This document shows positions 6,748-37,468 of a stretch of DNA of 64,000 nucleotides, one piece after another. The position numbers were made by a program, and so were the translations under genes. Positions within the stretch are counted from its first letter, which is position 1; each line of letters starts with the position of its first letter. This stretch comes from Thermodesulfobacteriota bacterium (GTDB lineage Bacteria; Desulfobacterota; QYQD01): contig JBFMAZ010000013.1 in the NCBI GenBank assembly GCA_040755415.1, positions 10,877 through 74,876 on the forward strand, written 5' to 3'. Below the pieces are notes generated by a model, which was not told where the DNA came from, made no database searches, and saw nothing but the letters and a program-made list of their open reading frames with translations.

Positions 6748-8076
6748 CTATAACGAGAATAGATTCTGTATATTTCTTAATCCACCCTTTTTGAGTTTTT
6801 TCATCATCTTTTGCATGTGCGCGAAATTTTTTAGCAACTTATTTACGTCCTGCACTGAGGTACCGCTGCCTTGAGCGATGCGCCGCCTACGGCTTCCATT
6901 TATGATTGTATAATTGTTTCGTTCCGCCTTGGTCATGGAATTTATAATAGCCTCTATCCTGACTAACTCGCTCTCGTCCGGACGTAATCCTTGCAACGAT
7001 TTGATCTTGTTTAGACCAGGAATCATGCCGATAAGCTGTTCCAGAGTCCCCATCTTTTTTATCTGCTGAAGTTGATCCCGGAAGTCCTCCAGGGTGAAAG
7101 ACTCTTTTCTGATCTTTTTCTCAAGTTCTACGGCCTTCTTAGCATCAAGAGTGGCCTGGGCCTTCTCAATAAGAGTAAGGACATCGCCCATCCCCAGTAT
7201 GCGGGAAGCCATGCGATCCGGATAGAACGGCTCTAAAGCATCCAGTTTCTCCCCCACACCAACAAATTTAATCGGCTTCTGAGTAACCGCTTTTATAGAT
7301 AGAGCCGCTCCTCCGCGGGCATCGCCATCCATTTTAGTGAGAATTATACCGGTTAGCCCCAGGGTCTGGTTGAACTTCTCGGCTATATTAACCGCATCCT
7401 GACCGGTCATGGCGTCGGCTACCAGAATAATTTCCGAAGGATCGATGGCCGCCTCGATGCCTTTAAGCTCATCCATAAGAACCGTATCAATGTGTAGGCG
7501 CCCCGCCGTATCTATGATGACGGTATCATAGGCCTTCTCCCTGGCCAGGGCCATAGCCCCTTGACAAATATCCAGGGGCTTCATGTCCGGCACAGACGGA
7601 TAGGCGGCTATATTCAAATCATTAGCTAGTTTTTGCAACTGTTCGATAGCCGCCGGCCTATAGATATCGGCCGGCACCAGGTAAGGACGCCTTCCCTTCC
7701 CCCGCAGGTGTAAGGCCAGCTTACCTGCCGTGGTGGTCTTGCCCGAACCCTGCAGACCAACCAGCATGATAGACACCGGCCATTTCCCTGAAAAATTAAT
7801 ATCTTGTTTCTGCCCCCCCATCAGGGCGGTCAATTCCTCGTGAACTATCTTAACAAGTTGCTGCCCCGGGGTAAGGCTATCCAATACCTCCTGTCCGATA
7901 GCGCGTTCCTGAACTGTATTGACAAAATCTTTAACGACTTTATAGTTTACATCAGCTTCTAAAAGGGCAAGGCGCACCTCACGCAGGCCGTCCTGGATAT
8001 TTTGCCCTGTTAATTTGCCGTACCCCCGGAGCTTCTTGAAAACGAGGTTGAGGCGTTCAGTTAAGCTTTCAAACAA
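6748..8076 (-). CDS. ffh: Signal recognition particle protein Ffh (start corrected to TTG; ORF-track start 8142 is inside the promoter)
   Basis: GTP-binding motifs GLQGSGKTTTAGKLA, DTAGR, TKMDGDARGG and M-domain. In-frame TTG at 8074-8076 gives canonical MFESLTERL N-terminus with GGGAG SD 7 nt upstream. The track's first codon (8140-8142) is the TTGACG -35 box. Confidence 0.9.
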   Translation of the reverse strand: MFESLTERLNLVFKKLRGYGKLTGQNIQDGLREVRLALLEADVNYKVVKDFVNTVQERAIGQEVLDSLTPGQQLVKIVHEELTALMGGQKQDINFSGKWPVSIMLVGLQGSGKTTTAGKLALHLRGKGRRPYLVPADIYRPAAIEQLQKLANDLNIAAYPSVPDMKPLDICQGAMALAREKAYDTVIIDTAGRLHIDTVLMDELKGIEAAIDPSEIILVADAMTGQDAVNIAEKFNQTLGLTGIILTKMDGDARGGAALSIKAVTQKPIKFVGVGEKLDALEPFYPDRMASRILGMGDVLTLIEKAQATLDAKKAVELEKKIRKESFTLEDFRDQLQQIKKMGTLEQLIGMIPGLNKIKSLQGLRPDESELVRIEAIINSMTKAERNNYTIINGSRRRRIAQGSGTSVQDVNKLLKNFAHMQKMMKKLKKGGLRNIQNLFSL

Positions 8077-8113
8077 AACACTACTCCCTGGTTTTTTGAA
8101 ACATAAAAGTGTA

Positions 8114-8142
8114 TTTATAAAATTTCTTTTGACAACCGTCAA
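8114..8142 (-). promoter_or_regulatory. Putative sigma70 promoter for ffh operon: -35 TTGACG (8137-8142 comp.), 17-nt spacer, -10 TATAAA (8114-8119 comp.)
   Basis: Read directly on minus strand: cTTGACGgttgtcaaaagaaatttTATAAAtacac; located 38-66 nt upstream of TTG start. Confidence 0.4.
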
Positions 8143-12077: not shown

Positions 12078-12248
12078 ATCTGTAAAGACTTGTATGCCCA
12101 CCCGGGCCTTTCCGCCTTTGTCCTTGACAATCATATCTAACTCATATAAAGCAGAAAAAGTTTTCTTATTTCCCCCTTTTCTTAATGACGGAAGTGGCCG
12201 ATATAGTAATAGATACAAGGGCCTTTGTGCCCTCAAGGAGGAGGATGC

Positions 12249-13835
12249 ATGTACAGAATCCTTCATAAATATTACTTGCTTTGTCTGTCTCTCCTTCTCG
12301 TAATTACTTCGTGCTGGGGCTGCGCCCGGCTAAAGGACAAACATCCGGCCGAACCGGTGGATAGCCGGCCACAGGGCAGACTCGTTATGTTTTTAAATGG
12401 CCCGCCGCAGGCCAGCCTGAATCTCACCTTTAGCCTCAGCAGCATTGCCGTCTTCAGCGAAGAAGGCGGGTGGGAAGAGTTGCCGCTTAAACCGCAACCG
12501 ATAAACTCCCGGGGTATAATCGGACGCCAGATCATCCTCGTGGAAAGCAAGCTTGTGGCCAGGACCTATGAAAAGGTGCGCTTTACCTTTGACCGGGCGC
12601 AGATCATTAAGGAAAATAAGGCCGCAGACCTTTCCATCCCTTCTGAAGGCCTGGAGATGGATTTTAAATTCAGGATAGTCAAAGGGCAGGATACTTCAGT
12701 TTTTATCAATTGGGATGTAGATGGGTCTATAGCGGATAATTATCTATTTATCCCCGCATTTGCGCTAAAGACAGAGATTCGCGGGGTAAGAAGCCAACTG
12801 GCTTATGTAACCAATGAAGAGTCAGACAATGTAACCGTTATTAATAGAGAATGGGACGAGGTTGTTTCTACCATAGCGGTAGGAAAGGCGCCATGCGGTC
12901 TGGCCGCCGGTACAAAGAAGACCAGGCTAAGGGTATATGTGGCCAATGCCAGGTCGAATAACATCACGGTCATCGATCCGACCCTAAACCAGGTTGAGCA
13001 GGCCGTACCGGTATCATTTGGTAAACAACCCCGGGCCATTGCCGCAGCGCAGACCCGGTCGGGCAAGGAATGTCTGTTTGTGGCCAATTATGCCTCTAAC
13101 AATGTCTCCATAATTGATACGGATAATTATGAAGAGATTGCACAGGTCAGGGTAGGGGTTGGCCCCATCGCCGTAATCACCGACCCCCCCACGGACACCA
13201 TATATAATATGAAAGGGCTGACGGCCAGCCAGTTGAGTCGCTGGAGGGATTACCGGGATCAACACCTGCATATATATGTAGCCAACAGTAAGACCAACAC
13301 CGTATCCGTTATTATTTTTAATACTTCTACACTTGCTGTGCAAGATACCCATACCTTAACCGTGGGCTGGAATCCGATGGCCCTGGACGTAGATGTGGAG
13401 CGGGGTAAGGTCTATGTAGCTAATAACGCCTCTGATACGCTCTCAGTCATCGATGCATTAAAGATCATGGATGGCTCCACCTCGGACGCAGTAACCACCT
13501 TAACCAATGTAGGCACGGGTGGGGTGGACATTGCGGTTGATGCCTACTTTATGAGGCTGTATCTTTTAAAGGACCGGCCCGGTGAATTGCTCTTTCTTAA
13601 GACCCCGGTGGAGGCCATCGCTGCATCCCTGAAGTCTATCATGACACCCATAACCGGATTGATCAATATGGACGGTTCTCCCCGGTCTATGGCCCTGGAC
13701 CCTGAAAGTAGAAAGTTTTATGTCGTGGATAGTGGGGGAGATGCAGTTCACGTTATAGATAAGACTACCCGACGTCAGATAAAGAGCATTCCCGTGGGTC
13801 GTAAGCCTTATGAGATTACGATGGTTCCTTTTTGA
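12249..13835 (+). CDS. YVTN-family beta-propeller repeat lipoprotein (start at MYRIL..., lipobox ITSC)
   Basis: At least five repeats of YVAN(A/Y/S/N)xSNN(I/V)(T/S)VID type; N-terminal signal peptide with lipobox; AAGGAGGAGG SD. Confidence 0.8.
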   Translation: MYRILHKYYLLCLSLLLVITSCWGCARLKDKHPAEPVDSRPQGRLVMFLNGPPQASLNLTFSLSSIAVFSEEGGWEELPLKPQPINSRGIIGRQIILVESKLVARTYEKVRFTFDRAQIIKENKAADLSIPSEGLEMDFKFRIVKGQDTSVFINWDVDGSIADNYLFIPAFALKTEIRGVRSQLAYVTNEESDNVTVINREWDEVVSTIAVGKAPCGLAAGTKKTRLRVYVANARSNNITVIDPTLNQVEQAVPVSFGKQPRAIAAAQTRSGKECLFVANYASNNVSIIDTDNYEEIAQVRVGVGPIAVITDPPTDTIYNMKGLTASQLSRWRDYRDQHLHIYVANSKTNTVSVIIFNTSTLAVQDTHTLTVGWNPMALDVDVERGKVYVANNASDTLSVIDALKIMDGSTSDAVTTLTNVGTGGVDIAVDAYFMRLYLLKDRPGELLFLKTPVEAIAASLKSIMTPITGLINMDGSPRSMALDPESRKFYVVDSGGDAVHVIDKTTRRQIKSIPVGRKPYEITMVPF

Positions 13836-13852
13836 TAGGCCGAGGATAAGGG

Positions 13853-16198
13853 TTGGATGTTAAACTTTTAAAGGTGATGGCCAGTCGTGCCATAGGCAGA
13901 TTCGCACGCCCAGGCGTATCTTCGACCGGGGCAAACAAAGTGCCTGCCCTACGGAGGTTGTGGAGGGTAGTTATAGCCCTGGCTGTGCTTATAACTTACC
14001 CCGGCCCATCTGCCTGGGCGGTAGGTATAGGCGGCACGGCCGATATTCGTTATAACGCAACCAAACAAAAAAAGGATGGAGTCAAAACAAGCGACGGTTA
14101 TAACTTTTCTCAAAATTATTATTTAAATCTGGCCGATGAAATTACCCCTGCGCTTTCTTATAGTCTCAATTTCCGGGCCAATCACAACAAAACTTCTACT
14201 ACCCAGGACAGCATAACCACAAAAACTTACAGCCAGGGCGCTGAGCCGCAGATTGAATTCAGCCTGCATAACCCTTTTTATAATGCCAGCGCCGGCTATC
14301 AACGTACAGAGAGATGGAGCGGGGCATCTATCGCTAATGAGATACGGAAGACCGGCGATTATACCTATGCCCGGTTTGATATATCCCCACGTGACTTGCC
14401 GACTCTGGCCCTGCAGTGGGGCCGTAAACGGGATTTTGATTATCTTTCGCCCACGCGCCTCGATACCACCACCGACACCTATCTCCTGAATACAAGTTAT
14501 GATTATGCCCCTTTCAGGCTTTACTACAATTATTACCTTACCCAGACCACAGATGATGCCCCCTCAGGCAATATCTATCGCACCGAGAGAGAGGCGCACA
14601 CGCATAATGGCCGGCTGGATTACGGCCAATCATTTTTTGACGGCAAGCTGCCGGTTAATGCCAGTTACCAGGCCAACTATAACCGGAATATTATGGATAT
14701 CTTTTCCACCGCCGCCGTGGTTACAGTACAGCGGACGCCTTTTCTGGGGCTTCATAAGAGGGATACGAACACAACTCCGACTCCAACCACACTCGAGCTC
14801 GCGACCCAAAACCTCCTTACAGATGGTGAAAAGAAGCCCGATGATACAAGTACAAACATCAACGTCGGGAAAACCGGATTGCCAAATTGGAACCTTAGTT
14901 CAAATCTACAGCACAATATAGGTCTGGAGCTGACCAGTACCAAATCAGTTAAGACCCTTCGCATTTACACAAACATACCCAAGAGCGACACCTCTTTTAA
15001 CGTCCCCGGGAACGCCTTGGACCTTACCGTTTACTCAGGCACCACAGCATCCAATTGGACCGCGATAACCGGTGTTGCTTCTCCGGCTCCGAGCACCTCG
15101 GCGACAGAAGACGTTTATTTTTACGAGGTAAACTTTACTGCCCAAGAAGCCAGATTTTTCAAGGTCGTCAATACCTCAGAAACAGACCGTACTAACGTAT
15201 ATATCACAGAGATAGAAGCCTATGGGGATGAGACGGAAAAAACGGATATTACTGACCGGTTCGATCAGGGTCTGAATTTTAATACCAGCCTGAAGGCCAG
15301 GCCTGATCTGTCGGTTTCCTTCAGTTTTTACCTGACGCGCAATGACGAAGAACCATCATCCCTTCCCGAGGCGGCGAGTAATCTGTTGTCAACCATTTTT
15401 AGTAAGACCCAAAAAGGGGGGGAGGGTATATCCAGGGGGACCACTACGCGGAGCTGGGGTCCTTCTGTTAACTGGCAGCCTTATAGCAAGCTCTTGACCT
15501 CTTTGCGTTTCCAAAGGCAGGATTCGTGGGATACGGAGGGGACCACCGACTCGGCATCCAATACGTATGCCTTTTCTCTTAATTCCCCGCTTCTGGATAC
15601 GCTGGATGCCACGTTTTCGGCGACCCGCAGTGAGCAGTACAGCTTTTCTGAGAAACAGACCATAAGCGACTCCCTTCTCTTCAGTACGCTGGCTAAATTG
15701 TACGACGGCGTCAACATGGTTACAGACCTGAACTATACCACCTCGGAGTCCTTTCAAACTAATATCACTACTGATACCCTTTCCCTTAATGGTAATATAA
15801 ATGCTATACTGACACGCAGGCTGAGTGGAACCTTCACTTATGGTTTTAGCTGGCCTTCGCCTGGTACGGCCTCCAACCAGCAGTCTCTGGTGTTGACTTA
15901 TCGCCCCAGTGCGCTGTTAAATTTTATGGCCTCGCTTCAGGCCGCCGATACTGGAACCGCCCATACTTTTGGCCAGAATTACAGTATAGACTGGCTCCCA
16001 GTCCCCGTACTTAATTTTAATCTGAGCGCCCAGGAGACGGAATCAGGAGACACAAAAAACCAGACCCTTACCTTCCAGAACAGGTGGCAGATAAATAGGT
16101 ATATGGATTTTCAGTTTAATTATTCCTTTGGGCGTGTTAAATCATCGTCTGAAACGGATACCCATACCTGGGGGTTCTCGTTTACCGGACGGTTCTGA
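13853..16198 (+). CDS. Large outer-membrane beta-barrel-like protein with embedded discoidin (F5/8 type C)-like domain
   Basis: 781 aa, signal peptide ...AVLITYPGPSAWA, alternating Y/T/S/N-rich amphipathic strands, C-terminal ...WGFSFTGRF (terminal aromatic F typical of OMP barrels); central segment ...VYFYEVNFTAQEARFFKVVNTSETDRTNVYITEIEAYG resembles discoidin/F5_F8_type_C C-terminal signature. Confidence 0.6.
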   Translation: MDVKLLKVMASRAIGRFARPGVSSTGANKVPALRRLWRVVIALAVLITYPGPSAWAVGIGGTADIRYNATKQKKDGVKTSDGYNFSQNYYLNLADEITPALSYSLNFRANHNKTSTTQDSITTKTYSQGAEPQIEFSLHNPFYNASAGYQRTERWSGASIANEIRKTGDYTYARFDISPRDLPTLALQWGRKRDFDYLSPTRLDTTTDTYLLNTSYDYAPFRLYYNYYLTQTTDDAPSGNIYRTEREAHTHNGRLDYGQSFFDGKLPVNASYQANYNRNIMDIFSTAAVVTVQRTPFLGLHKRDTNTTPTPTTLELATQNLLTDGEKKPDDTSTNINVGKTGLPNWNLSSNLQHNIGLELTSTKSVKTLRIYTNIPKSDTSFNVPGNALDLTVYSGTTASNWTAITGVASPAPSTSATEDVYFYEVNFTAQEARFFKVVNTSETDRTNVYITEIEAYGDETEKTDITDRFDQGLNFNTSLKARPDLSVSFSFYLTRNDEEPSSLPEAASNLLSTIFSKTQKGGEGISRGTTTRSWGPSVNWQPYSKLLTSLRFQRQDSWDTEGTTDSASNTYAFSLNSPLLDTLDATFSATRSEQYSFSEKQTISDSLLFSTLAKLYDGVNMVTDLNYTTSESFQTNITTDTLSLNGNINAILTRRLSGTFTYGFSWPSPGTASNQQSLVLTYRPSALLNFMASLQAADTGTAHTFGQNYSIDWLPVPVLNFNLSAQETESGDTKNQTLTFQNRWQINRYMDFQFNYSFGRVKSSSETDTHTWGFSFTGRF

Positions 16199-16213
16199 AA
16201 GGAGAAGGCATTA

Positions 16214-16825
16214 TTGTTGACAGTGATACATAAAACTGATAAAAGCCGAACGTGGGCGGTTGTTTTGTTATTTTGTTTATGCTTGACTTTTGTATTATTC
16301 TTGCCTGCCTGCGCACCCGGCCGAAAGACTTATCTGCGTTCGGGCGTTGATATTCGTCAGATTACAAAGGTGGCAGTTATGCCTTTTGAGAATCTGACCA
16401 ATGATCCGTATGCAGGTAAAAAGGTGCAAGATCTCATGATTACAGAACTTTTGCGCGGGGGGCGTGTGGATGTTATCGAGCCCGGCGAGGTATTAAATGC
16501 TATACGGAGTAGCGGGATTACCTCCATCAGTGCCTTGCATATTGAAAATATAAAGATTATCGGTCAGCGGCTGCGGGTCCCGGCGGTAGTGGTGGGTTCA
16601 GTCCATGCCTTCGGCGTAACGCGGGGCGTTACGATATCCTATCCCGAGGTAACTATTCACTGTATTGTGGTGGAAACCACTTCGGGGGCAATTATTGCTT
16701 CGACCCAGTACACGTCCGGTGGAACCGGCTTCTGGAGCAGGCATTTCAAGGCGGAAGGGCCTACCTTGGGCGAGACAGCCGAGGATGCGGTAAACGTTAT
16801 AGTAAGGAGTCTGTTTTTACCATGA
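16214..16825 (+). CDS. Lipoprotein, CsgG/LpoB/PelC (TolB-N-like fold)-like single-domain, paralog 1
   Basis: Lipobox LPAC; motif VAVMPFENLTNDPYAGKKVQDLMITELLRGGRVDVIE. Confidence 0.65.
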   Translation: MLTVIHKTDKSRTWAVVLLFCLCLTFVLFLPACAPGRKTYLRSGVDIRQITKVAVMPFENLTNDPYAGKKVQDLMITELLRGGRVDVIEPGEVLNAIRSSGITSISALHIENIKIIGQRLRVPAVVVGSVHAFGVTRGVTISYPEVTIHCIVVETTSGAIIASTQYTSGGTGFWSRHFKAEGPTLGETAEDAVNVIVRSLFLP

Positions 16826-17403
16826 AGCAACGGGGGGCTTATCACTTTATAATTTGTCTTTTACTGGCGTTCACCTTTTCTGGTTGCGCCCGTGCGCCCA
16901 AGCCGAGTTTTTATATACGCCAGGACTTTGACTTTAGCTTTATAAAGAGGGTAGCCGTATTGCCCTTTGATAATCTTACCAATGAGAAGTTTGCCTCGGA
17001 AAGGATTAGAAGACTGGTAATTAATGAACTTCTGGCCTCGGGCCTGATGGATGTGGTCGTAGCCGGCGATCTTTCAGCCGCCCTTAAGGCGGCCAGGGTG
17101 GAATCAGTAACGGCCCTGCCTCCCCAGCAGATCAAGGAAATTGGCAGGGCATTAAATGCGCAGGCCATTCTTACCGGCTCAGTCGAAAGATATGAGGAAC
17201 CCAAAGGTGGAACCTTTGCCGCCCCTGAAATTTCCATTTCCTTAGTGATGGCGGAGACCGATTCTGGTTCCATTGTCTGGTCAGTAAGTGTTTCTACCGG
17301 TGGGGCAGGTTTTGGGACCCGCCATTTTGGGGCACGTGCAGATACGATCAGTGAGGCATCTGAAAAGGCGGTTAAAAAGGCGATCCGGACGCTGTATCCA
17401 TGA
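16822..17403 (+). CDS. Lipoprotein, same family, paralog 2
   Basis: Lipobox FSGC; VAVLPFDNLTNEKFASERIRRLVINELLASGLMDVV; 4-nt overlap with upstream paralog (coupled). Confidence 0.65.
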   Translation: MKQRGAYHFIICLLLAFTFSGCARAPKPSFYIRQDFDFSFIKRVAVLPFDNLTNEKFASERIRRLVINELLASGLMDVVVAGDLSAALKAARVESVTALPPQQIKEIGRALNAQAILTGSVERYEEPKGGTFAAPEISISLVMAETDSGSIVWSVSVSTGGAGFGTRHFGARADTISEASEKAVKKAIRTLYP

Positions 17404-17409
17404 GAGATA

Positions 17410-17444
17410 AAATTCGAAATACGAATATCGAAATTCGAAACAAG
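17410..17444. repeat. AT-rich cgaaat repeat (family 2) short copy
   Basis: aaattcgaaatacgaatatcgaaattcgaaacaag; same words as 45471-45630, 50473-50633, 55908-56025. Confidence 0.6.
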
Positions 17445-17551
17445 ATATTGATGGTAGAGGTACGAGATTTGCCCTGCTCAATAGTTTTTTGAACCTAGTG
17501 TAGTACGCTATAAATAGCGCAACATATATTCTGGTATTCTGGTAACAAAAA

Positions 17552-17631
17552 CCGTCATTCCTGCGAAAGCAGGAATCCAGAAAGACAAAAAGACTAGATT
17601 CCGGGTCAAGCCCGGAATGACAATTAAAGTA
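17552..17631. repeat. Partial family-3-related hairpin element (GTCATTCCTGCGAAAGCAGGAATCCAG + ATTCCGGGTCAAGCCCGGAATGAC)
   Basis: Two perfect hairpins with GAAA/tcaag loops; related to core of 11924-12077. Confidence 0.55.
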
Positions 17632-17686
17632 ACGGAACTTATAGCGCACTACACTAGACACCTCCAAGTAATTATGAAACAGCCCT

Positions 17687-18733
17687 ATGTGGAAAATACT
17701 ATCCTTTCTCTTAACTCTCCTTATTTTTTTACCTTCCTGTGCCGGGCGGACAGCACTCGATAGCGATGCCAGGCTGCCGCTGGCCCGAAAAGCTATAGCG
17801 TTGATGCCTTTTGAGAACCTTTCTGATGATAAAGAGGCCATCGAAAAGGTTATGCCCTATATACGTCAGTGGTTCAAAGACGCCGGTTTTGAAATAGTAC
17901 CCGATGAAGTAGTTGAAAGATTTCTGTTGCGGCATGAAATTAGAAGTACCGGGCGTTTTTCAGATAAAACTATCCATGGTATGGAACGCGGGCTTGGAGC
18001 CGCTTATATTCTGCTGGGAAATGTAAATTCGTGCTCTGATGACCCGTTACTATCCATCTCTACCCGCCTGGTATCCGTGCCGGATGGGAATATTGTCTGG
18101 GGCGGGCATGCCAGCCGCAGTGGGGAGGAATTTAAAACGGTTCTGGGCCTGGGTAAGATTACGACCCTGGCCGGGCTTGCCCCTGTAGTAGTTGACGAAC
18201 TTTTCTCTTCCCTCAAGCGGTTCGTGCCTCCGGATAAGGCAGAACGTGAAAAATGGCGTTTCCGGGTGGCGGTAATGCCCTTTGGAAACTTGAGCGCGCG
18301 CAAGGATGCCGGGGTTATCGCCACGTATCTATTCCTTTCGGGCATAGCGCAAAAACCGGGCTGGGCGACTGTTGAATATGGTAAGGTCTGGAATACCCTG
18401 GTTTCAGAGAACTATCCATACCGTGGAGAACTGGACTATGATACGTTGCAGGCGCTGGGCAGGAAACTTGAAGTCGATGGCATCCTGCTCGGAACAGTGG
18501 AAAAATATACTGAAGATCTGGGCGCCAAAGGACAGGTTATCCCGGAGGCAGCTATCAGCCTGCGTCTTTTATATGTTCCGAATAAAACCATTATCTGGGC
18601 AGATCGACTGGGGGCTACCGGCGAAGATGATATTTTAGTCCTGGATTGGGGGCTAATAAGAACGGCCGATAAGGTTGCCGAAAAGGTAATTAAAAAGTTA
18701 GTCACGCGTCTTCCATATATTGAGGTTAGATAA
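17687..18733 (+). CDS. Lipoprotein with tandem duplication of the same CsgG/LpoB-like domain, paralog 3
   Basis: Lipobox LPSC; two copies of the (A/V)xxxMPF(E/G)NLS motif (IALMPFENLSDDKEA..., VAVMPFGNLSARKDAG...). Confidence 0.65.
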   Translation: MWKILSFLLTLLIFLPSCAGRTALDSDARLPLARKAIALMPFENLSDDKEAIEKVMPYIRQWFKDAGFEIVPDEVVERFLLRHEIRSTGRFSDKTIHGMERGLGAAYILLGNVNSCSDDPLLSISTRLVSVPDGNIVWGGHASRSGEEFKTVLGLGKITTLAGLAPVVVDELFSSLKRFVPPDKAEREKWRFRVAVMPFGNLSARKDAGVIATYLFLSGIAQKPGWATVEYGKVWNTLVSENYPYRGELDYDTLQALGRKLEVDGILLGTVEKYTEDLGAKGQVIPEAAISLRLLYVPNKTIIWADRLGATGEDDILVLDWGLIRTADKVAEKVIKKLVTRLPYIEVR

Positions 18734-18761
18734 AATGGCCCTCTAGGAAGCGAAAAAATAA

Positions 18762-18897
18762 CAAATTCCAAAGCCAAAAGTTCAAAACAATGACAAAGTT
18801 CAAATAATACCCGACAGACTTAATGGCAGAACTTATGTGCCTCTTTATAGTTGGACTTTGAATTTGATTTGACATTTGGATTTTAGGTTTTGAAATT
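18762..18897. repeat. AT-rich imperfect palindrome (family 2-like) immediately upstream of SurA-like gene
   Basis: caaattccaaagccaAAAGTTCAAAACAATGACAAAGTTCAAATaat ... inverted partner ggactttgaatttgatttgacatttggattttaggttttgaaatt. Confidence 0.55.
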
Positions 18898-18952
18898 ATA
18901 CAGTTACCTTACCTCTGACTTGCCAGAGTTAGGTTCGGTAAAGGGGTTAGAT

Positions 18953-20635
18953 ATGTCACTATTTATATTGTTACGAAACTGTATGGTGATCGGGTTGCTC
19001 CTGTTGCTTGCGGCCTGTAGCGGATTCATGACCACAGGGGGAACCCCTGTGGCCTGGGTGGATGGCGTACCGGTAACTGAGGGAGATCTAAAAGAGGCAC
19101 TAAAGATAACCCATCGCACTGAGGCCGTACGGCCGGGTGAGCATCCCGATCTTATGGTTTATGTCAATAAATTGATCGATGAGCGCCTGATTGTCCAGGA
19201 GGCCTATCGGATGGGACTGGACAAGGACCCCTGGGTGCAAAATAAAATGCACGAGTATAAACTCAGGGAATCCGTGGTACGCCTCTATAAAGAAGAGGTT
19301 CAAGACAGGATCAGGATGAGCGATGACGAGATGCGGCGATTTTATAACGAGCAGATGGAGGAGGCACATATTCGCCAAATAACACTGGGGACTGAGGAAG
19401 AAGCCCTGAATATACGGGACCAGATTGAGGCTGGTTCTGATATGGCCGCTCTCGCCCGGGAGCATTCTATCGATATATTTAAAGATAAGGGGGGCGACCG
19501 TGGGTTTTTACGCCGGTGGCAGCTCCCGGAATCAGTTAGAGATGCGGCTTTCTCCCTCAAGGATGGCCAGATAGCACCCGTGATTAAGACTTCCTCCGGT
19601 TATCAAATAATAAAAATTGAGGAGAAGAAGGCCGCACCAGAGAAAAATTTAGAGGAGATAAGGCGGGTTGCGGAGAAATCACTGCGCAAGAAAAAAGAAG
19701 AGGCGTTAGGTCAGGAAGTTTTAAAGGGATATCGAAAGCAGGCCGATATAGTCATAAGCGGAGATTTATTGGCAGAGTTGCCGGTTTCTATTGATGCAGC
19801 AAAAGATGAAAAATGGGCCAAGGATGAACGGCCTATTGCAAAAATTGGAGAAGAAATATTGACGGTTGGCCAGTTCTGTCAACAGCTCAAAGATATGCCG
19901 GAGTCTAAGTTGGTTACCGACGATCCACTGGCCTTAAAGCGCAAGTTCATAGATAGCTGGATCGACCGCAAACTTGTAGATATAACTGCCTTGAATCGAC
20001 ATTATGAGCGGGATGAAGATTTCGGTCGTATGCTTAAGTATTATGAAGAATATTTACTAAAGAAGTTGTTTGCCCAGAAGGTTATATACCCGCAGATAAA
20101 GATTTCGGACGAACTTCTCAAAAATTATTACGACAACCACCGCGATAATTATCTTAAACCGGTTCAATACCGGATACGGCAGATTACTGTAACTGACGAG
20201 GCGCAGGCCCGGACCATCCTGGAACAACTGCGCGGGGGAGCTGATTTTGCCTGGCTGGCAAAAAATAAGTCCGAAGACGGCCTGGCTGAAAAGGGAGGAG
20301 ACAGAGGCTGGATTTCAGGAGATAGCCTACCTTCTTCCTTCGCTAAGGCTGTTTGCGACCTTAAGGTTGGGGAATTGAGCGACATATTTTCAGAAAACGG
20401 CGCATATTTTATCGTAAAGTTGGAGGCCAAATCCGATGTTGAATATGAGGACTTTGAACAAATAAAGGATGCCGTGCAAAAGGACTACGTCAAGGAAAAC
20501 TATGAGCAATTATGGACAAATTATGCCGGAGAGTTACGACAGGATGCTGAAGTCAGTATAAATACCCCCTTTATCCAGGAATTGGCGGAAAGATTCTTGC
20601 CTTCAAAAAAGGCCTCGTCCCTTGACAAGCAATGA
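18953..20635 (+). CDS. SurA/PpiD-like periplasmic chaperone lipoprotein with two parvulin PPIase domains
   Basis: Start at MSLFILL... (AAAGGGG SD; lipobox LAAC). An upstream in-frame ATG at 18890 is possible. Parvulin signatures ...SSGYQIIKIEEKK and ...NGAYFIVKLEAK; SurA_N-like region. Confidence 0.75.
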   Translation: MSLFILLRNCMVIGLLLLLAACSGFMTTGGTPVAWVDGVPVTEGDLKEALKITHRTEAVRPGEHPDLMVYVNKLIDERLIVQEAYRMGLDKDPWVQNKMHEYKLRESVVRLYKEEVQDRIRMSDDEMRRFYNEQMEEAHIRQITLGTEEEALNIRDQIEAGSDMAALAREHSIDIFKDKGGDRGFLRRWQLPESVRDAAFSLKDGQIAPVIKTSSGYQIIKIEEKKAAPEKNLEEIRRVAEKSLRKKKEEALGQEVLKGYRKQADIVISGDLLAELPVSIDAAKDEKWAKDERPIAKIGEEILTVGQFCQQLKDMPESKLVTDDPLALKRKFIDSWIDRKLVDITALNRHYERDEDFGRMLKYYEEYLLKKLFAQKVIYPQIKISDELLKNYYDNHRDNYLKPVQYRIRQITVTDEAQARTILEQLRGGADFAWLAKNKSEDGLAEKGGDRGWISGDSLPSSFAKAVCDLKVGELSDIFSENGAYFIVKLEAKSDVEYEDFEQIKDAVQKDYVKENYEQLWTNYAGELRQDAEVSINTPFIQELAERFLPSKKASSLDKQ

Positions 20636-22635
20636 AGGCTAATGATATGGTGCTGCGCATGAAAAATTCGAAATTCGAAGCTCGAAATTCGAAAATTAAA
20701 GTAGTTGGCCTTGTACTATTTGTCTGCCTTATCATTTTAAGTTGTGCTGAGGCGCCGACCAGGCCTCAGCGAGGTTTCGCTCCGAAGGCATGTCTGGACT
20801 GCCATGGCAAGAAGTTCGATGATCTCAAAAAACCTTATGTCCATGGTCCGGCGCTCGAAAAAGACTGCGAAGTATGCCATGATCGCCATGGTAAGATACC
20901 CATCAGGACATTCAAAAAACCGGGTGCCGCATTGTGTTATACCTGCCATGCCGCGGAAAAACTAGGGATAAGTGAAAAAGCTGCGGTTCATACCCCTATA
21001 AAAGAAGGCAAATGTATACCCTGTCATGCCCCGCATGCCGGTGACAATAAACTCTTCTTAAAAAAGCAGGGTAATAGCCTTTGCTTTGATTGTCACCAGG
21101 AGACTCTATTTAAAGGCGCTAAAATCCATGCCCCGTTAGAAAAGGGGTGCTTGACCTGCCACAGACCTCATGCCTCACCCCAGGCCGATCATCTTGTCAA
21201 ACCAGAGACAGAGCTTTGCCTTGGTTGCCACAACTCAGGGAGCGCCTCTTTCCGGACAGCCCATCAGAATTACCCAGTGGAAAAGGCGCATTGTACGGGA
21301 TGCCATGACCCGCATGCCACGGCCCATCCTAAGTTACTAAGACCTTCTATACATAAGCCGCTGGCGGAAAAAAGGTGTAGTTCCTGCCACCGTCCATCTG
21401 CAGATAAAGAGCCGCTAAAGGCCGTGGCTCAGGATGGCGCCCTTTGCTACTCCTGCCACGAGCAGGTGGCCAGGCGATTTGAACAGGTCTGCCGGCATAA
21501 GCCCATACAAGAGGGCAAGTGCCTGGTCTGCCATAGTCCCCATGCCACGGATTTTGTCCCCCAGTTGGTTAAGGATGTCAACTCTCTTTGTTTTGCCTGT
21601 CATAAAGAGAAGGCAGGTTCTTTGAAGGCAGGTGTGCCGCATGCGCCACTCAAAAAGCAGGGTTGTACGGCCTGTCATGATGCACATGCCTCGGCTAATA
21701 CTAGATTGCTCAAGATGGAAAAAGAGAAGCTCTGTCTCGAGTGTCATAAGAAGACAGAGGAAGAACTAAGGGCAACTTATGTACATAAACCCCTTGCATC
21801 TGATCAGTGTACGACCTGCCACAACGCCCATGGATCCAATTATAAGGGAATGCTGGGCGTATCCCCGGAGGCCCTGTGCTACAGTTGTCATAAGGAGGCC
21901 AGAGATAAATTTTATAAGGCATACGTTCATACCCCGGTAAGTAAAAAGAATTGTACAGGATGTCATAAGCCGCATGGAGCAAATTATAAATCTCTTCTCA
22001 AGCATTCCAAGGTGGATATTTGTTTCTCCTGTCATGTAGAAATGAAGAACATAGGTGCAGAAGGCAAGGGTCATCCGCCATTTATGAGGAAGGAATGCCA
22101 GGGCTGTCACGACCCCCACGCCAGTAATTATCCGATGCAGCAAGCGCTTCCACCTTCTGAACTCTGTCTGAGGTGTCATAAGAACTTCGTGGCCAAAGGA
22201 AAAGACGCCCCGGCCGTACATCAGCCGGTAAAGGAAGGAAACTGTATCAGTTGCCATAGCCCGCACGGTACAAAACTGGCCAGTTTGCTCCTCAATCAAA
22301 CCGGTGAGTTGTGTCTGTCCTGTCATGGCCAGCTAAAGGAGGCGCTGCGTTCGGCCCGGGGGCATACGCCGGTCAAGCAAGGTAATTGCCGCGGCTGCCA
22401 TCTGCCCCATTACGGAGAAGAAAAAGGGCTCTTGGCCAACCGGGATCCATTCCTCTGTCTCCAGTGCCATGCTGCCGATAAACCTACCAATATCAAGGCG
22501 CATCAGGGATTGCTCCAAAACACCAGCTTATGTCTGGAGTGTCATGAGCCGCATATATCCGCCAAAGGGAGTTTGTTGAAGAAAAATGAGCACAGTCCTT
22601 TTGCCAAGAGAGATTGCAGGCTGTGTCATAAATAA
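20632..22635 (+). CDS. Multiheme c-type cytochrome, 26 CxxCH motifs, probable lipoprotein (lipobox ILSC)
   Basis: 26 CxxCH counted by eye, many as CxxCHxPH(A/G) paired-CxxCH/c7-like repeats. N-terminal 20 codons overlap a cgaaattcgaa repeat (20661-20696); alternative start ATG 20659. Confidence 0.85.
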   Translation: MKANDMVLRMKNSKFEARNSKIKVVGLVLFVCLIILSCAEAPTRPQRGFAPKACLDCHGKKFDDLKKPYVHGPALEKDCEVCHDRHGKIPIRTFKKPGAALCYTCHAAEKLGISEKAAVHTPIKEGKCIPCHAPHAGDNKLFLKKQGNSLCFDCHQETLFKGAKIHAPLEKGCLTCHRPHASPQADHLVKPETELCLGCHNSGSASFRTAHQNYPVEKAHCTGCHDPHATAHPKLLRPSIHKPLAEKRCSSCHRPSADKEPLKAVAQDGALCYSCHEQVARRFEQVCRHKPIQEGKCLVCHSPHATDFVPQLVKDVNSLCFACHKEKAGSLKAGVPHAPLKKQGCTACHDAHASANTRLLKMEKEKLCLECHKKTEEELRATYVHKPLASDQCTTCHNAHGSNYKGMLGVSPEALCYSCHKEARDKFYKAYVHTPVSKKNCTGCHKPHGANYKSLLKHSKVDICFSCHVEMKNIGAEGKGHPPFMRKECQGCHDPHASNYPMQQALPPSELCLRCHKNFVAKGKDAPAVHQPVKEGNCISCHSPHGTKLASLLLNQTGELCLSCHGQLKEALRSARGHTPVKQGNCRGCHLPHYGEEKGLLANRDPFLCLQCHAADKPTNIKAHQGLLQNTSLCLECHEPHISAKGSLLKKNEHSPFAKRDCRLCHK

Positions 22636-22680
22636 CATGGATATCTACCGCAGAGGCACAGAGGCCGTATAGATAAATGA

Positions 22681-22740
22681 CAAATATCAAAATCCAAAGT
22701 TCAAATCAATGACAAAGTTCAAATGATGAAACATTGACAA
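22681..22740. repeat. AT-rich motif copy (AAAGTTCAAATCAATGACAAAGTTCAAATGA) upstream of 16-heme cytochrome
   Basis: Near-identical 30-mer to 18779-18808. Confidence 0.55.
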
Positions 22741-22778
22741 TACCCGGAAGGTTTATGGAGTGGAGAGATATTAACAAG

Positions 22779-24011
22779 ATGAAGGTTAAGTTAGCTATAT
22801 GGCCTTTACTGGGCTTTTTTGCCTGGATACTTACGGGCGAGGCGGCGGCAAAGCCTTCGGCTGATACCTGTTATAGCTGCCATAGCCAGTTAAAAAAGGA
22901 ATTTGCGCAAAAAACCATACATGATCCAGTAGACAAGGGCCAGTGCACAGCCTGTCACAATCCTCACGCCACGAACCAGGATAAGTTTTTAAAAGACGAG
23001 ATAAACAAGGTCTGTTATAGTTGTCACAAGGGATTGGCACAGGAACTGGGGCGTGGGCACGTTCATTCCGTACTTTTGCATGATAAATGCACGCGCTGTC
23101 ACAGTCCCCATGCCTCTGCACACAGAAATCTGCTGGCTAAAGAAGCAAATAGTTTATGCCTGGACTGCCATGAAGGTGTAAAAAAGCAGCTTGCCTTTTC
23201 CTACTCTATACCGCCCTTCCGGGAGAAGAAGTGCCTTTCTTGTCACGAACCACATGTCTCCAGGGAGGAAGGGTTGGTAAGGAAAAGTATAAATCGTCTT
23301 TGCCAGGACTGTCATGGCATTAAGTGCAAGAGTAAAGGCGTTTCTCTGGCCTTTGCCCTCCAGGATGCCGACTGCACTAACTGCCATAATCCCCACGCCT
23401 CAAACAAGAAAGGGGTTTTCAACCCTGTAGCCCATCAGTCTTTCGTTGATCAAAAATGTGAGGCATGCCACGATGCGATTGCAGCAAATAAGCCCCTTAC
23501 GACAAAGCTAACCGGCCGGGCATTATGCTTTGATTGCCATGGCAATAAGAAAGATATGCTATCTAAGATATACGTTCACGCCGGAGGAGGTACCTGCACC
23601 ACCTGTCATAATCCTCATGCCTCGCAGGATAAGGGCCTTATCTGGAAGAAAGAGAAATGGCTCTGCATCTCCTGCCATTCCGACACAGACCGGCGTGAGA
23701 AGGCATCCATTGAGAAGCAAAAAGACATCCGCTGTACGGCCATAATAGAAGGGAAATGCTCCCATTGTCATGATCCACACGCCGCAAATATGCCCCGTTA
23801 CTTTAAAGGCGATGGCGTTGATATCTGTGTAAGTTGCCATAAAAGAGAACACAGCTTATCGCATCCCCTCAGGGAAAAATCTATAGATCCGCGGACTAAC
23901 CAGCCGACTTATTGCACTACCTGTCACGGAATGCATACTGCTGAAAACAAATTTATGCTCTATTTCGACCGCAAAAGGGAACTGTGTATAGAGTGTCATA
24001 AAAGGGATTAA
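22779..24011 (+). CDS. Multiheme c-type cytochrome, 16 CxxCH motifs, secreted
   Basis: Start at MKVKLAIWPLLGFFAWILTGEAAA (signal peptide); 16 CxxCH; same repeat architecture as upstream 26-heme protein. ORF-track start 22734 also possible. Confidence 0.85.
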   Translation: MKVKLAIWPLLGFFAWILTGEAAAKPSADTCYSCHSQLKKEFAQKTIHDPVDKGQCTACHNPHATNQDKFLKDEINKVCYSCHKGLAQELGRGHVHSVLLHDKCTRCHSPHASAHRNLLAKEANSLCLDCHEGVKKQLAFSYSIPPFREKKCLSCHEPHVSREEGLVRKSINRLCQDCHGIKCKSKGVSLAFALQDADCTNCHNPHASNKKGVFNPVAHQSFVDQKCEACHDAIAANKPLTTKLTGRALCFDCHGNKKDMLSKIYVHAGGGTCTTCHNPHASQDKGLIWKKEKWLCISCHSDTDRREKASIEKQKDIRCTAIIEGKCSHCHDPHAANMPRYFKGDGVDICVSCHKREHSLSHPLREKSIDPRTNQPTYCTTCHGMHTAENKFMLYFDRKRELCIECHKRD

Positions 24012-24023
24012 GGAGCTTGCGGT

Positions 24024-24983
24024 ATGGCTTTGATATTTGGCAGGATCAGGTTTTTATTAATTGTCCTTGTGCTGTGTAGCATTATGTCGGTTTTTTTCGC
24101 ACTTAATCCTTGTATTGCCCAGCAAAAGGCACCCTTTGCCCTCCAGGTTGGTTTTACACAACTGGAAGGCATGGGCAAATTGAAGCAGATCCGGAGCCTT
24201 TTCTGGTCACAGGCCAAAAATAGACTGCTTGTGGCCGATACCGGCAATAACCGCCTGCTTTTCTTTGGCGACAGCGAGGGTAAATTCCGGTTCCTGTCTG
24301 AATTTAAATCTGACAAAATGGTGTTACCCATTAGCGCTGTAGAGACCAGCCAGGGGACGATTATAGTCATTGAGCGAGGTGCTCAGAGTATTATCAGTTA
24401 TAATCCTGAGACCGGCGAGAGACGCGGCATTCTTGGGGATGAATTTCCTGATGCCTCGTCCTTCTGGCCTACTTATCTGGCCTTAGATGATAAGGACAAT
24501 CTTTATGTCGTGGATCAAGGGAACCAGAGAATTTACATTTTTGATGGAAGTCTAAGGTATAAGCTCCATATAAATTCTCCTGAACCGAAGTTCACAGGAT
24601 TTTCAGCGGTGGCAGTTGATAAGGACGGGAACATAATTGCGCTTGAGGCCCAGCGCGGTATAATCTATGTCTTCGATAAAGAAGGAAAGATTATCCGCCA
24701 GGTTAGTAAGCGCGGGGAGCTCCGCGGAGAAACTGAATTTCCGGTGGACATAGCTGTGGACGGACAGGGGCGCATTTACATCCTGGATTCTCACCGGCAT
24801 CAGGTCGTTCTTCTTGACCGGGAAGGAAATTGGCAGGGGGAGATAGGCGAAAAGGGGTGGAAGGAAGGAAAGCTCATATTCCCCCATCGGATAGCGGCAG
24901 CTTCTGATTACCGCCTGTTTATCGTTGATGCCGATGATAATCGCCTGCAGGTTTTTATCCCGGCCGGGGGATCGGGGCAATAG
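24024..24983 (+). CDS. NHL-repeat beta-propeller protein, secreted
   Basis: Signal peptide; repeats ...LLVADTGNNRLLFFGD..., ...LYVVDQGNQRIYIFD..., ...IYILDSHRHQVVLLD..., ...LFIVDADDNRLQVF... (NHL). Confidence 0.8.
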   Translation: MALIFGRIRFLLIVLVLCSIMSVFFALNPCIAQQKAPFALQVGFTQLEGMGKLKQIRSLFWSQAKNRLLVADTGNNRLLFFGDSEGKFRFLSEFKSDKMVLPISAVETSQGTIIVIERGAQSIISYNPETGERRGILGDEFPDASSFWPTYLALDDKDNLYVVDQGNQRIYIFDGSLRYKLHINSPEPKFTGFSAVAVDKDGNIIALEAQRGIIYVFDKEGKIIRQVSKRGELRGETEFPVDIAVDGQGRIYILDSHRHQVVLLDREGNWQGEIGEKGWKEGKLIFPHRIAAASDYRLFIVDADDNRLQVFIPAGGSGQ

Positions 24984-25002: not shown

Positions 25003-25142
25003 CCCGGTTTTTTCCCTCTCCCCTGGCGGGAGAGGGTTAGGGTGAGGGGGATAACCTAGCGATTTTCCTATCAGTTCACCCTCCCCCCCAACCCCCTCCC
25101 GTCGAGGGAGGGGGGAGTTTTTAGGGGTTTCCGGATGGACAC
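25003..25142. repeat. Complex ~140-bp GC-rich palindromic element (CCCTCTCCCCTGGCGGGAGAGGG and CCCTCCCGTCGAGGGAGGG hairpins nested in outer TCCGGAAACCCC...GGGGTTTCCGGA arms)
   Basis: Read directly; shares CCCTCCC/GGGAGGG and CCCCCTCACCC words with MITE core and in-frame palindromes. Confidence 0.6.
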
Positions 25143-26142: not shown

Positions 26143-27147
26143 TTAATGATTGCGGTGACAGGTGCGGCAAGAGCCTGAAGAGGACATATTCGCGCCGTAT
26201 TCGAAGCGGAGGATGCTTGGATAGGGAGAACCGTGGGCACGGTGGCACGACAGACACATTACTACCTCATTGCCTGACGGGACGTTTACTTCTGACGGAT
26301 TTTTTGTACAATCGAGATTAAGCCTGGCTACGGGCACAATCGGGTTATATTCTGTATAACCGGAGAATTCCCCGTCCGGAATGGGAATATCTGTCGGGTG
26401 CCTTAACCAGGGGCTCTTGCCCCCGGTACCGGCCGCACCGTGAAAGTTACCTGCATTGGTGCCCAGGGCATCGCTGCCATGGCATTGACCGCATAAATAG
26501 CTTATGCTCTTTGGATCACGCCAGTTATCAGCCCCCTGGTATTCGTTATGCTTATCAGAGGCAGTCTTGCATTCCCATTTGTAGCCGTCTTCATTCATCT
26601 CCCGCCCGGTAACCCCCAACAGAAACCGATAACTTGTTGCTACCGTCTTTCCATCGGACGGTTTGGCAGGGTTATAGGCATGATGGGCTCCCTTCATGGC
26701 TTCGCGTGGCGAGATCTTGGTGCGGTCGCCATGGCAGCCATATTTACCGGCACATGTGAGCCGGACGCTGGTGAAATTCAAGAAGGGGTCATTTAGCCCT
26801 GGTGCGTTAATGGTATCCGGTCCTATATCCGTAAACCCATCCACATTATGGCCATGGCGACTGCCGTGAAGGCCGACATAATAAAAATTGCCGCCGGCTA
26901 AGTCTGTTCCGGAATTATGATAAACATAAGGGGTTGATCCGGCCTTACCGGTATTGCCTGTTTGTATGGCAGCGTGGCAACGGGTACAATGCTCTGCACC
27001 TTGATCTTGTGTGTCTTTTGTAACTACGGCCTTGTAGGAGGCATGACATCTTTCACAATTAGTATCTAATGCCAGTGCATTAGAACTTACCCATGTGAAA
27101 TAAGTCCATAATACAGGTATTATCAACCAACGGGACGCCGTTTTCAC
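26143..27147 (-). CDS. Multiheme c-type cytochrome (5-6 heme sites incl. one Cx4CH-type), secreted
   Basis: Signal peptide; CERCHA, CTRCHA, CAGKYGCHG, CGQCHG, CLSCHRAHG, CRTCHR. Confidence 0.8.
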   Translation of the reverse strand: MKTASRWLIIPVLWTYFTWVSSNALALDTNCERCHASYKAVVTKDTQDQGAEHCTRCHAAIQTGNTGKAGSTPYVYHNSGTDLAGGNFYYVGLHGSRHGHNVDGFTDIGPDTINAPGLNDPFLNFTSVRLTCAGKYGCHGDRTKISPREAMKGAHHAYNPAKPSDGKTVATSYRFLLGVTGREMNEDGYKWECKTASDKHNEYQGADNWRDPKSISYLCGQCHGSDALGTNAGNFHGAAGTGGKSPWLRHPTDIPIPDGEFSGYTEYNPIVPVARLNLDCTKNPSEVNVPSGNEVVMCLSCHRAHGSPYPSILRFEYGANMSSSGSCRTCHRNH

Positions 27148-35665: not shown

Positions 35666-35707
35666 ATCCCCCCTCACCCCCCTTTACCAAAGGGGGTAAG
35701 GGGGGAT
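35666..35707. repeat. 42-bp GC-rich palindrome inserted in-frame in mod (encodes IPPHPPLPKGVRGD)
   Basis: ATCCCCCCTCACCCCCCTTTACCAAAGGGGGTAAGGGGGGAT. Confidence 0.75.
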
Positions 35708-37467: not shown

Positions 37468-37468
37468 G

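Follow-up and report, generated by a model that had tools for sequence, protein, structure and literature searches.

Gene content of the locus

The window analyzed here is a stretch of 64,000 nucleotides from a Thermodesulfobacteriota bacterium. It contains an operon spanning 12225-24983, in which the target barrel gene is the second gene, and an OmcS-like cytochrome gene which lies outside this operon on the opposite strand. The features are listed below, with coordinates in the window.

12225..13835, + strand: operon gene 1, an OscD-like lipoprotein with DUF4382 and a YVTN beta-propeller (Pfam/NCBIfam matches; lipobox ITSC)
13853..16198, + strand: target gene, OscE-like, 781-aa outer-membrane beta-barrel of 28 predicted strands with a discoidin insert
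13853..14020, + strand: long signal peptide of the target, residues 1-56, cleavage after AWA (sequence and alignment)
14024..14707, + strand: barrel strands beta1-beta11, residues 58-285 (DSSP of the model; kept in domainless homologues)
14717..15244, + strand: insert between beta11 and beta12, residues 289-464, made up of a linker hairpin and the discoidin domain
14804..15235, + strand: jelly-roll core of the CBM32 / F5-8 type C (discoidin) domain, residues 318-461
15236..16195, + strand: barrel strands beta12-beta28, residues 462-781 (DSSP of the model)
16214..16825, + strand: LpoB/CsgG/TolB_N-like lipoprotein, OscF-like paralogue A
16822..17403, + strand: LpoB-like lipoprotein, OscF-like paralogue B
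17687..18733, + strand: 348-aa lipoprotein with two LpoB-like repeats, OscG-like
18890..20635, + strand: lipoprotein with two PPIC-type prolyl isomerase (PPIase) domains, OscH-like
20632..22635, + strand: 26-heme c-type cytochrome lipoprotein, OscI/GSU2495-like (26 CXXCH motifs; Pfam)
22734..24011, + strand: 16-heme c-type cytochrome, OscJ-like
24024..24983, + strand: NHL-repeat beta-propeller, GSU2493-like, final gene of the operon
25092..25114, + strand: strong intrinsic-terminator-like hairpin 3' of the operon (9 pairs, 8 of them G-C, then a T run)
26143..27147, - strand: 334-aa OmcS-family hexaheme cytochrome with 5 CXXCH and 1 CX5CH motifs, candidate filament subunit or cargo

The LpoB-like lipoproteins of the operon are also GNA1162-like. 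Since a phmmer search of the PDB with the 334-aa cytochrome gave no match, a family profile was needed to reveal its relationship to OmcS. This profile, which contained no Geobacter sequence, matched OmcS (6ef8) with an E value of 7e-17.

The target protein is a Sec-exported, BAM-type outer-membrane barrel. Its antiparallel strands are even in number, a signal peptide precedes them, and the chain ends in an aromatic beta-signal (...FTGRF), so that the signal peptide and terminal aromatic residue pointed out in the initial annotation were borne out, together with the barrel expected from them. The n-region of the signal peptide was rich in indels in the alignment of close homologues, and residues 1-57 had low pLDDT in the AF2 model. 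DSSP of this predicted model gave 28 strands, split 11 + 17 around the insert; a loop of 29 residues with a helix (residues 500-528) lies within the beta12-beta28 part. The pTM of the model was 0.62, which suggests that the placement of the domain relative to the barrel is uncertain. The full-length protein matched no Pfam model (E<=1) and no NCBIfam model (E<=1), and phmmer found no match to it in the PDB. The full-length family profile gave only a marginal PDB match (6q63, E 0.011), and a domain-only profile was therefore needed.

Fold, position and variability of the insert

The central region had been read as a jelly roll of the discoidin type, with VYITEIEAYG at its end, displayed in a loop or plug of the barrel. 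Core motifs of such a fold were present in the target (L-x-DG, NIGLEL, W402, FFKVV, and VYITEIEAYG), as was the eight-strand jelly-roll/beta-sandwich typical of F5/8 type C domains. Residues 318-462 of the target gave no Pfam match to PF00754 or PF22633 (E<=10), and this copy is too diverged for the Pfam models. At the family level, PF00754 was matched by 12 of 33 diverse domains (best E 2e-10) and PF22633 also by 12 of the 33; P0021, P0200, and P0127 are among the family members with discoidin Pfam matches. Moreover, the domain-only profile matched solved CBM32 domains in the PDB with E values of 4e-6 to 1e-4, though the target sequence alone had no Pfam match. Judged by this family-level homology, the insert is a CBM32/F5-8 type C (discoidin) domain, and the earlier reading of the fold was correct. 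The residues conserved in the domain were all core motifs of the F5/8C fold, while the loops were its variable parts; no sugar-binding residues or binding site could be identified among the conserved residues. Sugars of the galactose type, or other surface ligands, are what CBM32/F5-8C domains usually bind.

The insert occupies residues 289-464, in the loop between beta11 and beta12. Both the DSSP of the model and the domainless homologues placed it after strand 11, an odd strand. The long loops of the barrel (9, 8, 176, and 29 residues) all lie on one face, and the turns on the opposite face are all of at most 6 residues. Its strand parity and variability, together with the loop lengths, place the insert most probably in extracellular loop 6, and the discoidin domain itself is probably extracellular. 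A count that takes the strands at residues 290-304 for the 12th of the barrel would make the domain periplasmic; it was rejected, because the domainless homologues lose residues 289-464 including those strands, and because 12 + 17 would give an odd strand number. Of the two placements offered earlier, an extracellular loop or a plug, the loop is thus preferred, and the plug is carried as a rival below.

Natural variants were found in which the insert is absent or doubled. Exactly residues 289-464 were missing in four or five homologues, and one homologue had two tandem copies of the insert. One domainless homologue (P0044) lies on a 5.5-kb contig in a partly matching context, preceded by a DUF4382/YVTN gene and followed by two small ORFs that lack annotation. 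The existence of domainless homologues indicates that the domain is dispensable for the core function.

The insert is also a sharply bounded hypervariable cassette among near-identical relatives. Nucleotide identity of about 0.9 fell to 0.56-0.78 only across 14700-15290, and at least three alleles of this region occurred among these relatives. Among relatives whose barrels were 91-93% identical, the insert was 68% identical, and the discoidin module was the fastest-evolving part of the protein. Simple positive selection was rejected as the source of this variability, since dN/dS of the insert was only 0.10-0.25 and, in most pairs of close relatives, dS was raised as well as dN. The dS of the insert was 2-4 times that of the barrel in most pairs, which indicates allele exchange.

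Conservation of the gene block and its relation to the osc cluster

With clustering at 50% identity, searches for the barrel family returned 1234 representative clusters at a threshold of E<=1e-3, and 548 at the stricter E<=1e-30. Pfam and NCBIfam lack a model for the family, despite its more than 1200 clusters. In all 25 genome loci (L001-L025), the barrel gene was preceded by the YVTN gene and followed by the lipoprotein genes. The PPIase gene was found in 21/25 loci and the 26-heme cytochrome gene in 20/25, most absences being contig ends, and an OmcS-like gene was found in 17/25. This arrangement was kept across Thermodesulfobacteriota, Nitrospirota and Geobacteraceae, and in at least three phyla. 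These results show that the target is no one-off, and is a member of a large uncurated family tied to one operon.

A matching block follows a hexaheme gene in Geotalea uraniireducens (L026). It encodes a YVTN protein of 465 aa, a barrel of 741 aa, an LpoB-like protein of 200 aa, a 391-aa protein, a PPIase of 588 aa, the 26-heme and 16-heme cytochromes, and the NHL protein, and each gene of the window block has a reciprocal positional match in it. The target is about 24% identical to the Geotalea barrel (BLASTP E 5e-27 over residues 34-768), the family profile matched P0146 with an E value of 9e-62, and hhalign aligned the two barrel clades (A1 and A3) over 686 columns with a probability of 100% (E 3e-78). 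The model of the Geotalea barrel also had 11 + 17 strands with an insert. Further homologue searches, seeded with the Geotalea protein or with a 31-sequence alignment, returned metagenomic relatives only, and GSU2499 was not among them. In UniRef, the Geotalea homologue is called "TIGR03016 PEP-CTERM-associated outer membrane protein"; this name was rejected, since the NCBIfam model matched neither the target (E<=1) nor eight family members including P0185 (E<=0.1).

In the literature, G. uraniireducens has an eight-gene block corresponding to GSU2500-GSU2493 downstream of a GSU2501-like hexaheme gene, and the block has been linked to OmcS maturation and secretion. GSU2495 is described as a protein of about 70 kDa with 26 hemes. 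Second-hand accounts give OscH a part in folding, OscE/F/G one in secretion, and OscD one in morphology, and the "channel-like OscEFG" of G. sulfurreducens is attributed to Shen et al. (2025, Cell Chem Biol), as cited in PMC13194489 and bioRxiv 10.1101/2025.11.06.686851. A porin-like mounting model has also been discussed, with large barrels in the OmcS and OmcE regions, and the necessity of OmcS filaments in Geobacter physiology is disputed. A literature search for discoidin in the Geobacter outer membrane found nothing relevant.

On the basis of synteny, homology to the Geotalea barrel and second-hand descriptions of GSU2499, we assign the target with good confidence to the osc (OmcS-companion) cluster as an OscE-type barrel. 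The unusual surface receptor first proposed has given way to the conserved barrel of an osc-type cytochrome-nanowire assembly cluster. The architecture is real, and the system is of a known kind, since a 2025 proposal for Geobacter already gives the cluster the task of folding conductive cytochrome nanowires, exporting them and mounting them.

Proposed role and comparison with known systems

The target is probably the OscE-type outer-membrane channel of an osc-type system responsible for the folding of an OmcS-family multiheme cytochrome, its export and its mounting at the cell surface. On the periplasmic face, the lipoproteins and the PPIase would be at work, and the barrel would be the channel through which the cytochrome comes to be displayed at the surface. 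Its pore, of about 4 nm, would be wide enough for a folded, heme-loaded subunit. The insert, as extracellular loop 6, would sit at the outer mouth of this pore as an exposed, exchangeable binding cap, with the emerging filament or a glycan of the cell surface or of a partner as its ligand. Overall, the most likely reading is a channel for the export or mounting of nanowires that carries such a putative cap. That the domain binds a glycan or the filament is a tentative proposal. More speculatively still, the insert may be an outward, swappable docking module that chooses the attachment (the filament base, a glycan of the own or a partner surface, or polysaccharide on a mineral surface), diversified by recombination because it is exposed to phages and predators, and lost or doubled in some lineages while the channel is kept.

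An unlikely alternative is a porin-cytochrome conduit of the Mtr/Pcc type, in which the barrel would sheathe the 26- or 16-heme cytochrome and pass electrons to an external OmcS-like cytochrome, with no export of protein. The target shares with MtrB and other porin-cytochrome complexes (PDB 6r2q) a very large barrel made of one chain and a gene position beside multiheme cytochromes of extracellular electron transfer, and 6r2q_B was among its longest structural matches, by generic barrel similarity only. No Pfam or NCBIfam match to the MtrB/decaheme-associated OMP family was found for the target, which differs from MtrB in having 28 strands rather than 26, a discoidin insert, and an operon that also encodes a PPIase and LpoB-like lipoproteins. 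For the osc barrel, published work proposes secretion, in contrast to sheathing by MtrB.

It is similarly improbable that the discoidin module serves to plug or gate the lumen, inside it or over it, shifting aside at export like the plugs of chaperone-usher pores or TonB-dependent receptors, and is not a ligand-binding surface module. The chaperone-usher pores FimD/PapC (PDB 3ohn, 2vqi, 6e14) likewise combine a large barrel, a beta-sandwich module in mid-barrel, a surface filament and periplasmic folding helpers, and an usher-like model for cytochrome filaments has been discussed in the literature. However, the module evolves faster than the rest of the protein, is exchanged as a cassette, occurs in tandem in one homologue, and is missing in others with a similar, partly resolved context, all of which is hard to square with a plug that needs to fit the barrel wall. 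The co-encoded lipoproteins are, moreover, alternative plug candidates (cf. LptE in LptD). The target gave no Pfam match to the fimbrial usher family PF00577, and has 28 strands against 24 and an insert of the CBM32 fold. The plug of ushers follows an even strand and is periplasmic; the insert of the target comes after an odd strand, probably on the outer face.

The target might also be a surface receptor or nutrient porin that works alone, its discoidin domain binding mineral-associated or free polysaccharide beside cytochromes that are there by chance. This reading would suit the ligands typical of CBM32/F5-8C domains and the probable surface exposure of the domain, but is very improbable given the strict gene order with cytochromes, PPIase and lipoproteins in the 25 loci and in Geotalea, the lack of glycan-utilization genes in the target's neighborhood, and the domainless members in similar, partly resolved context.

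How folded, heme-loaded cytochrome filaments traverse the outer membrane and stay anchored to it is an unsettled problem in the field of extracellular electron transfer. If the target is the export or mounting channel, the barrel of the proposed machinery gains an anatomy: 28 predicted strands, a CBM32 domain probably in extracellular loop 6, domainless and double-domain variants, and a hypervariable cassette. Uncultured Thermodesulfobacteriota and many Nitrospirota have kept the block together with an OmcS-family cytochrome, and a curated family model would improve the detection of nanowire-type electron-transfer systems in metagenomes. Furthermore, the boundaries at residues 289-464 offer a clean design for deleting or swapping the domain.

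For the insert, the nearest named examples are the AlyQ CBM32 (7d2a), the C. perfringens GH84C/NagH CBM32 domains (2j1a/2w1q), and domain 1 of galactose oxidase. In these examples the domain is appended to an enzyme or adhesin, whereas that of the target sits within the loop of an outer-membrane barrel. For the whole protein, the closest counterpart is OscE (GSU2499) of the G. sulfurreducens osc cluster: the target holds the equal position in an eight-gene block and has an OmcS-family hexaheme cytochrome beside it. It differs in coming from an uncultured non-Geobacter lineage of Thermodesulfobacteriota, in a block with two OscF-like paralogues rather than one, and with an OmcS-like gene that lies on the opposite strand and carries a CX5CH site.

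The barrel gene and its surroundings

The open reading frame at 13853-16198 on the forward strand was uninterrupted and encoded 781 residues, with a TTG start codon and GAGGA six bases upstream, and its product had an identical counterpart among the called proteins of a Thermodesulfobacteriota MAG, where it is annotated as hypothetical. The initial annotation had read this product as an outer-membrane beta-barrel, and this was borne out by a signal peptide ending in PSAWA (followed by VG), by the C-terminus FTGRF, whose terminal phenylalanine was invariant in 25 homologues, and by an AlphaFold2 model that was nearly all beta. The model, built from a 25-sequence alignment, was confident (mean pLDDT 83.7, pTM 0.62) and comprised eleven long strands (58-285) and seventeen further ones (462-780) on either side of a central module. 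The Geotalea uraniireducens homologue, modelled as well (pLDDT 85.8), had the same 11 + insert + 17 layout. Pfam and NCBIfam scans of the whole protein gave no match at E ≤ 1, and a phmmer search of solved structures found no relative. The UniRef label of the Geotalea protein, TIGR03016 (PEP-CTERM-associated OMP), the only name that a source database gave to the family, was unsupported, as the NCBIfam scan was without a match. The n-region of the signal peptide was unusually long and differed by indels among homologues 84-88% identical; the start codon may vary from lineage to lineage.

The barrel gene was the second of nine co-directional genes forming an operon.

Features of the operon and of the rest of the window
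12225-24983, operon of nine genes, in this order:
Gene 1, DUF4382 and YVTN propeller lipoprotein
Gene 2, 13853-16198 (+), barrel; signal peptide 13853-14020, n-region of about 34 residues
Genes 3-4, 16214-17403, two LpoB/CsgG/TolB_N-like lipoproteins
Gene 5, 17687-18733, lipoprotein of 348 aa with two LpoB-like repeats
Gene 6, lipoprotein with two PPIC prolyl-isomerase domains
Gene 7, cytochrome lipoprotein with 26 CXXCH
Gene 8, cytochrome with 16 CXXCH
Gene 9, NHL propeller
25092-25114, strong terminator-like hairpin 3' of the operon
26143-27147 (-), OmcS-family cytochrome of 334 aa, just past the operon
33861-40294 (+), type III restriction-modification-like island
6748-8142 (-) and neighbours, ffh, rimM, trmD and an RNA methyltransferase

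Lipoboxes were present on six of the nine products (the propeller, the three LpoB-like proteins, the PPIase and the 26-heme cytochrome). Judged from its sequences, the operon suggests a lipoprotein-rich complex at the inner face of the outer membrane.

The 334-residue cytochrome carried five CXXCH motifs and one conserved CX5CH (C132-AGKYG-C138-H139), and its family profile, which contained no Geobacter sequences, matched OmcS (6ef8) over nearly the full length (E 7e-17). It was about 70 residues shorter than OmcS. The Geotalea hexaheme had its third CXXCH at the position aligned with the CX5CH, a variant that was kept in the copies from both Thermodesulfobacteriota and Nitrospirota. The restriction-modification-like island encoded an N6/N4 DNA methylase split over two ORFs (33861-34559 and 34742-36202), a Fic/DOC protein and a ResIII helicase-nuclease. 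Upstream of the cluster, at a distance of about 4 kb, lay the ffh group; according to a preprint, OmcE nanowire clusters in Desulfuromonadia adjoin ffh and tRNA-modification genes, and the proximity here may be a coincidence.

The discoidin module and its position

The central domain had also been proposed to be of discoidin type, and this was confirmed at the level of family and fold rather than by a Pfam match of the window's own domain, which gave none even at E ≤ 10 because it is too divergent. A profile from 33 diverse central domains of the family matched solved CBM32/F5-8C domains (E 4e-6 to 1e-4). In single-domain scans, PF00754 and PF22633 were each matched by 12 of the 33, and discoidin matches, precomputed or scanned, were present in three full-length homologues. 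The residues conserved family-wide (L322, N355, G357, W402, F436-K437 and T452-E455) were all core motifs of the fold, so that no binding site was identifiable in the domain from family-wide conservation.

Sub-profiles, one for each barrel half and one for the centre, were run over 235 collected family members. Both halves were found in 183 and a recognisable central domain in 168, one of which (P0021, 837 aa) had it twice in tandem. In four or five members the halves were directly joined; P0044, P0048, P0054 and P0097 (570-590 aa) missed the insert entirely. The alignment showed that these short forms were without exactly residues 289-464, including the short strands 290-304, which therefore lie outside the barrel wall. 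The predicted barrel is thus of 11 + 17 = 28 strands, and the module, placed by the model in the connection of strands 11 and 12, is a discrete insertion. At the P0044 locus, a DUF4382/YVTN propeller gene preceded the barrel gene and two small ORFs followed it; the match to the window operon was partial, since these ORFs were unannotated and the contig was only 5.5 kb.

In BAM substrates both termini are periplasmic, and an insertion after an odd-numbered strand would therefore be on the extracellular side, as loop 6. The long connections of the model (9, 8, 176 and 29 residues) were all on one face, those of the opposite face had 2-6 residues each, and at every level of divergence conservation was lower in the putative outer loops than in the periplasmic turns. 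Both observations fit the extracellular placement. The 29-residue helix-containing loop (residues 500-528, 15350-15436) adjoins the insert on the same putative outer face; it was shared by the window's clade and Nitrospirota, and was missing from the Geotalea clade as well as from the most distant homologues.

Variation of the insert

Among eight homologues 84-88% identical overall, the barrel halves were 91-93% identical compared to only 68% for the domain. At the nucleotide level, three closely related MAG loci were about 0.9 identical to the window over the whole operon, and a drop to 0.56-0.78 with sharp edges was confined to about 14700-15290, coincident with the insert. Two of these loci, L001 and L003, shared one insert allele (0.90-0.95), giving at least three alleles. 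The pattern of the window against L001 and L002 across the insert was a mosaic. In most pairs the dS of the insert was 0.7-1.8 compared to 0.2-0.45 for the barrel, and dN was raised too. Since both were raised while dN/dS stayed at 0.10-0.25, the sequences indicate an exchange of diverged alleles, not a burst of adaptive substitutions. The variable residues were in segments between the core strands, and such variability is typical of exposed surface modules.

Relation to the osc system

When representatives of clusters at 50% identity were searched with the family profile, 1234 of them matched at E ≤ 1e-3, and 548 passed the stricter E ≤ 1e-30. This family, with more than 1200 such clusters in several phyla, has no Pfam or NCBIfam model. 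The 25 genome loci compared came from MAGs of Thermodesulfobacteriota, of many Nitrospirota/Thermodesulfovibrionia and of other 'Deltaproteobacteria'. Wherever matching genes were found, the propeller gene was followed by those of the barrel, the lipoproteins, the PPIase and then the 26-heme and 16-heme cytochromes; loci missing some of them were mostly ended by contig ends. The OmcS-like gene was present in 17 of the 25, and the NHL propeller was also found.

The cultured Geobacteraceae member G. uraniireducens had a family barrel within the same block: a hexaheme cytochrome (425 aa), YVTN protein (465), barrel (741), LpoB/GNA1162-like protein (200), a 391-aa protein, PPIase (588), 26-heme (658) and 16-heme (427) cytochromes and NHL protein (298). 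The best match of each window gene in this block was its positional counterpart, and the two barrel clades aligned over 686 columns (hhalign probability 100%, E 3e-78). Tandem LpoB/CsgG/TolB_N-like paralogues were seen in the window and in Nitrospirota loci (two genes); the Geotalea locus L026 had one GNA1162/LpoB-like gene (12246-12848).

According to a 2025 preprint, G. uraniireducens and its relatives carry an eight-gene block, GSU2500-GSU2493, which follows an OmcS-like hexaheme of the GSU2501 kind. A 2026 paper names oscC (GSU2501), oscI (GSU2495) and oscJ (GSU2494), and assigns folding to OscH, secretion to OscE/OscF/OscG and morphology to OscD. In another preprint, large beta-barrel genes go with most OmcE and OmcS regions and a porin-like mounting pathway is discussed. 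By interpolation from these gene names, and via synteny and homology to the Geotalea orthologue, the barrel would be of the OscE (GSU2499) type.

In the best-supported reading, the barrel serves an osc-type system as its outer-membrane channel. An abstract by Shen et al. from 2025 reportedly describes OscEFG as 'channel-like', OscH as a chaperone that contains a PPIase, and OscD as beta-propeller-like. By standard geometry, we estimate that a 28-strand barrel would measure roughly 5 nm from Cα to Cα and enclose a lumen of about 4 nm, which would admit a hexaheme subunit already folded and loaded with haem, or the filament base. The PPIase and the LpoB-like lipoproteins would work from the periplasmic side; sealing of the pore may be a further task of the lipoproteins. 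The module would sit at the outer mouth. Because sugars or other ligands at surfaces are the usual binding partners of the CBM32/F5-8C fold family, it could be an exposed, recombination-diversified cap that docks or anchors the filament or a surface or partner glycan.

The initial annotation had suggested an unusual surface receptor; the architecture is real and precisely delimited, but the protein probably belongs to an already proposed OmcS-companion machinery, and a receptor standing on its own is the least likely of three rival readings. Alternatively, the barrel could be an Mtr-like cytochrome sheath. The third rival is a role of the domain as plug or gate; the variable behaviour of the insert speaks against a tightly fitted internal plug.

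The apparently new details are the strand count, the CBM32 insert with its probable extracellular position, its natural loss and duplication and its cassette-like hypervariability, together with the CX5CH site of the neighbouring cytochrome. They make the osc-type system more testable and leave its kind unchanged. This machinery is widespread and already proposed, and the window block shares its gene order with the osc block of Geobacter, with an OmcS-family cytochrome beside the operon.
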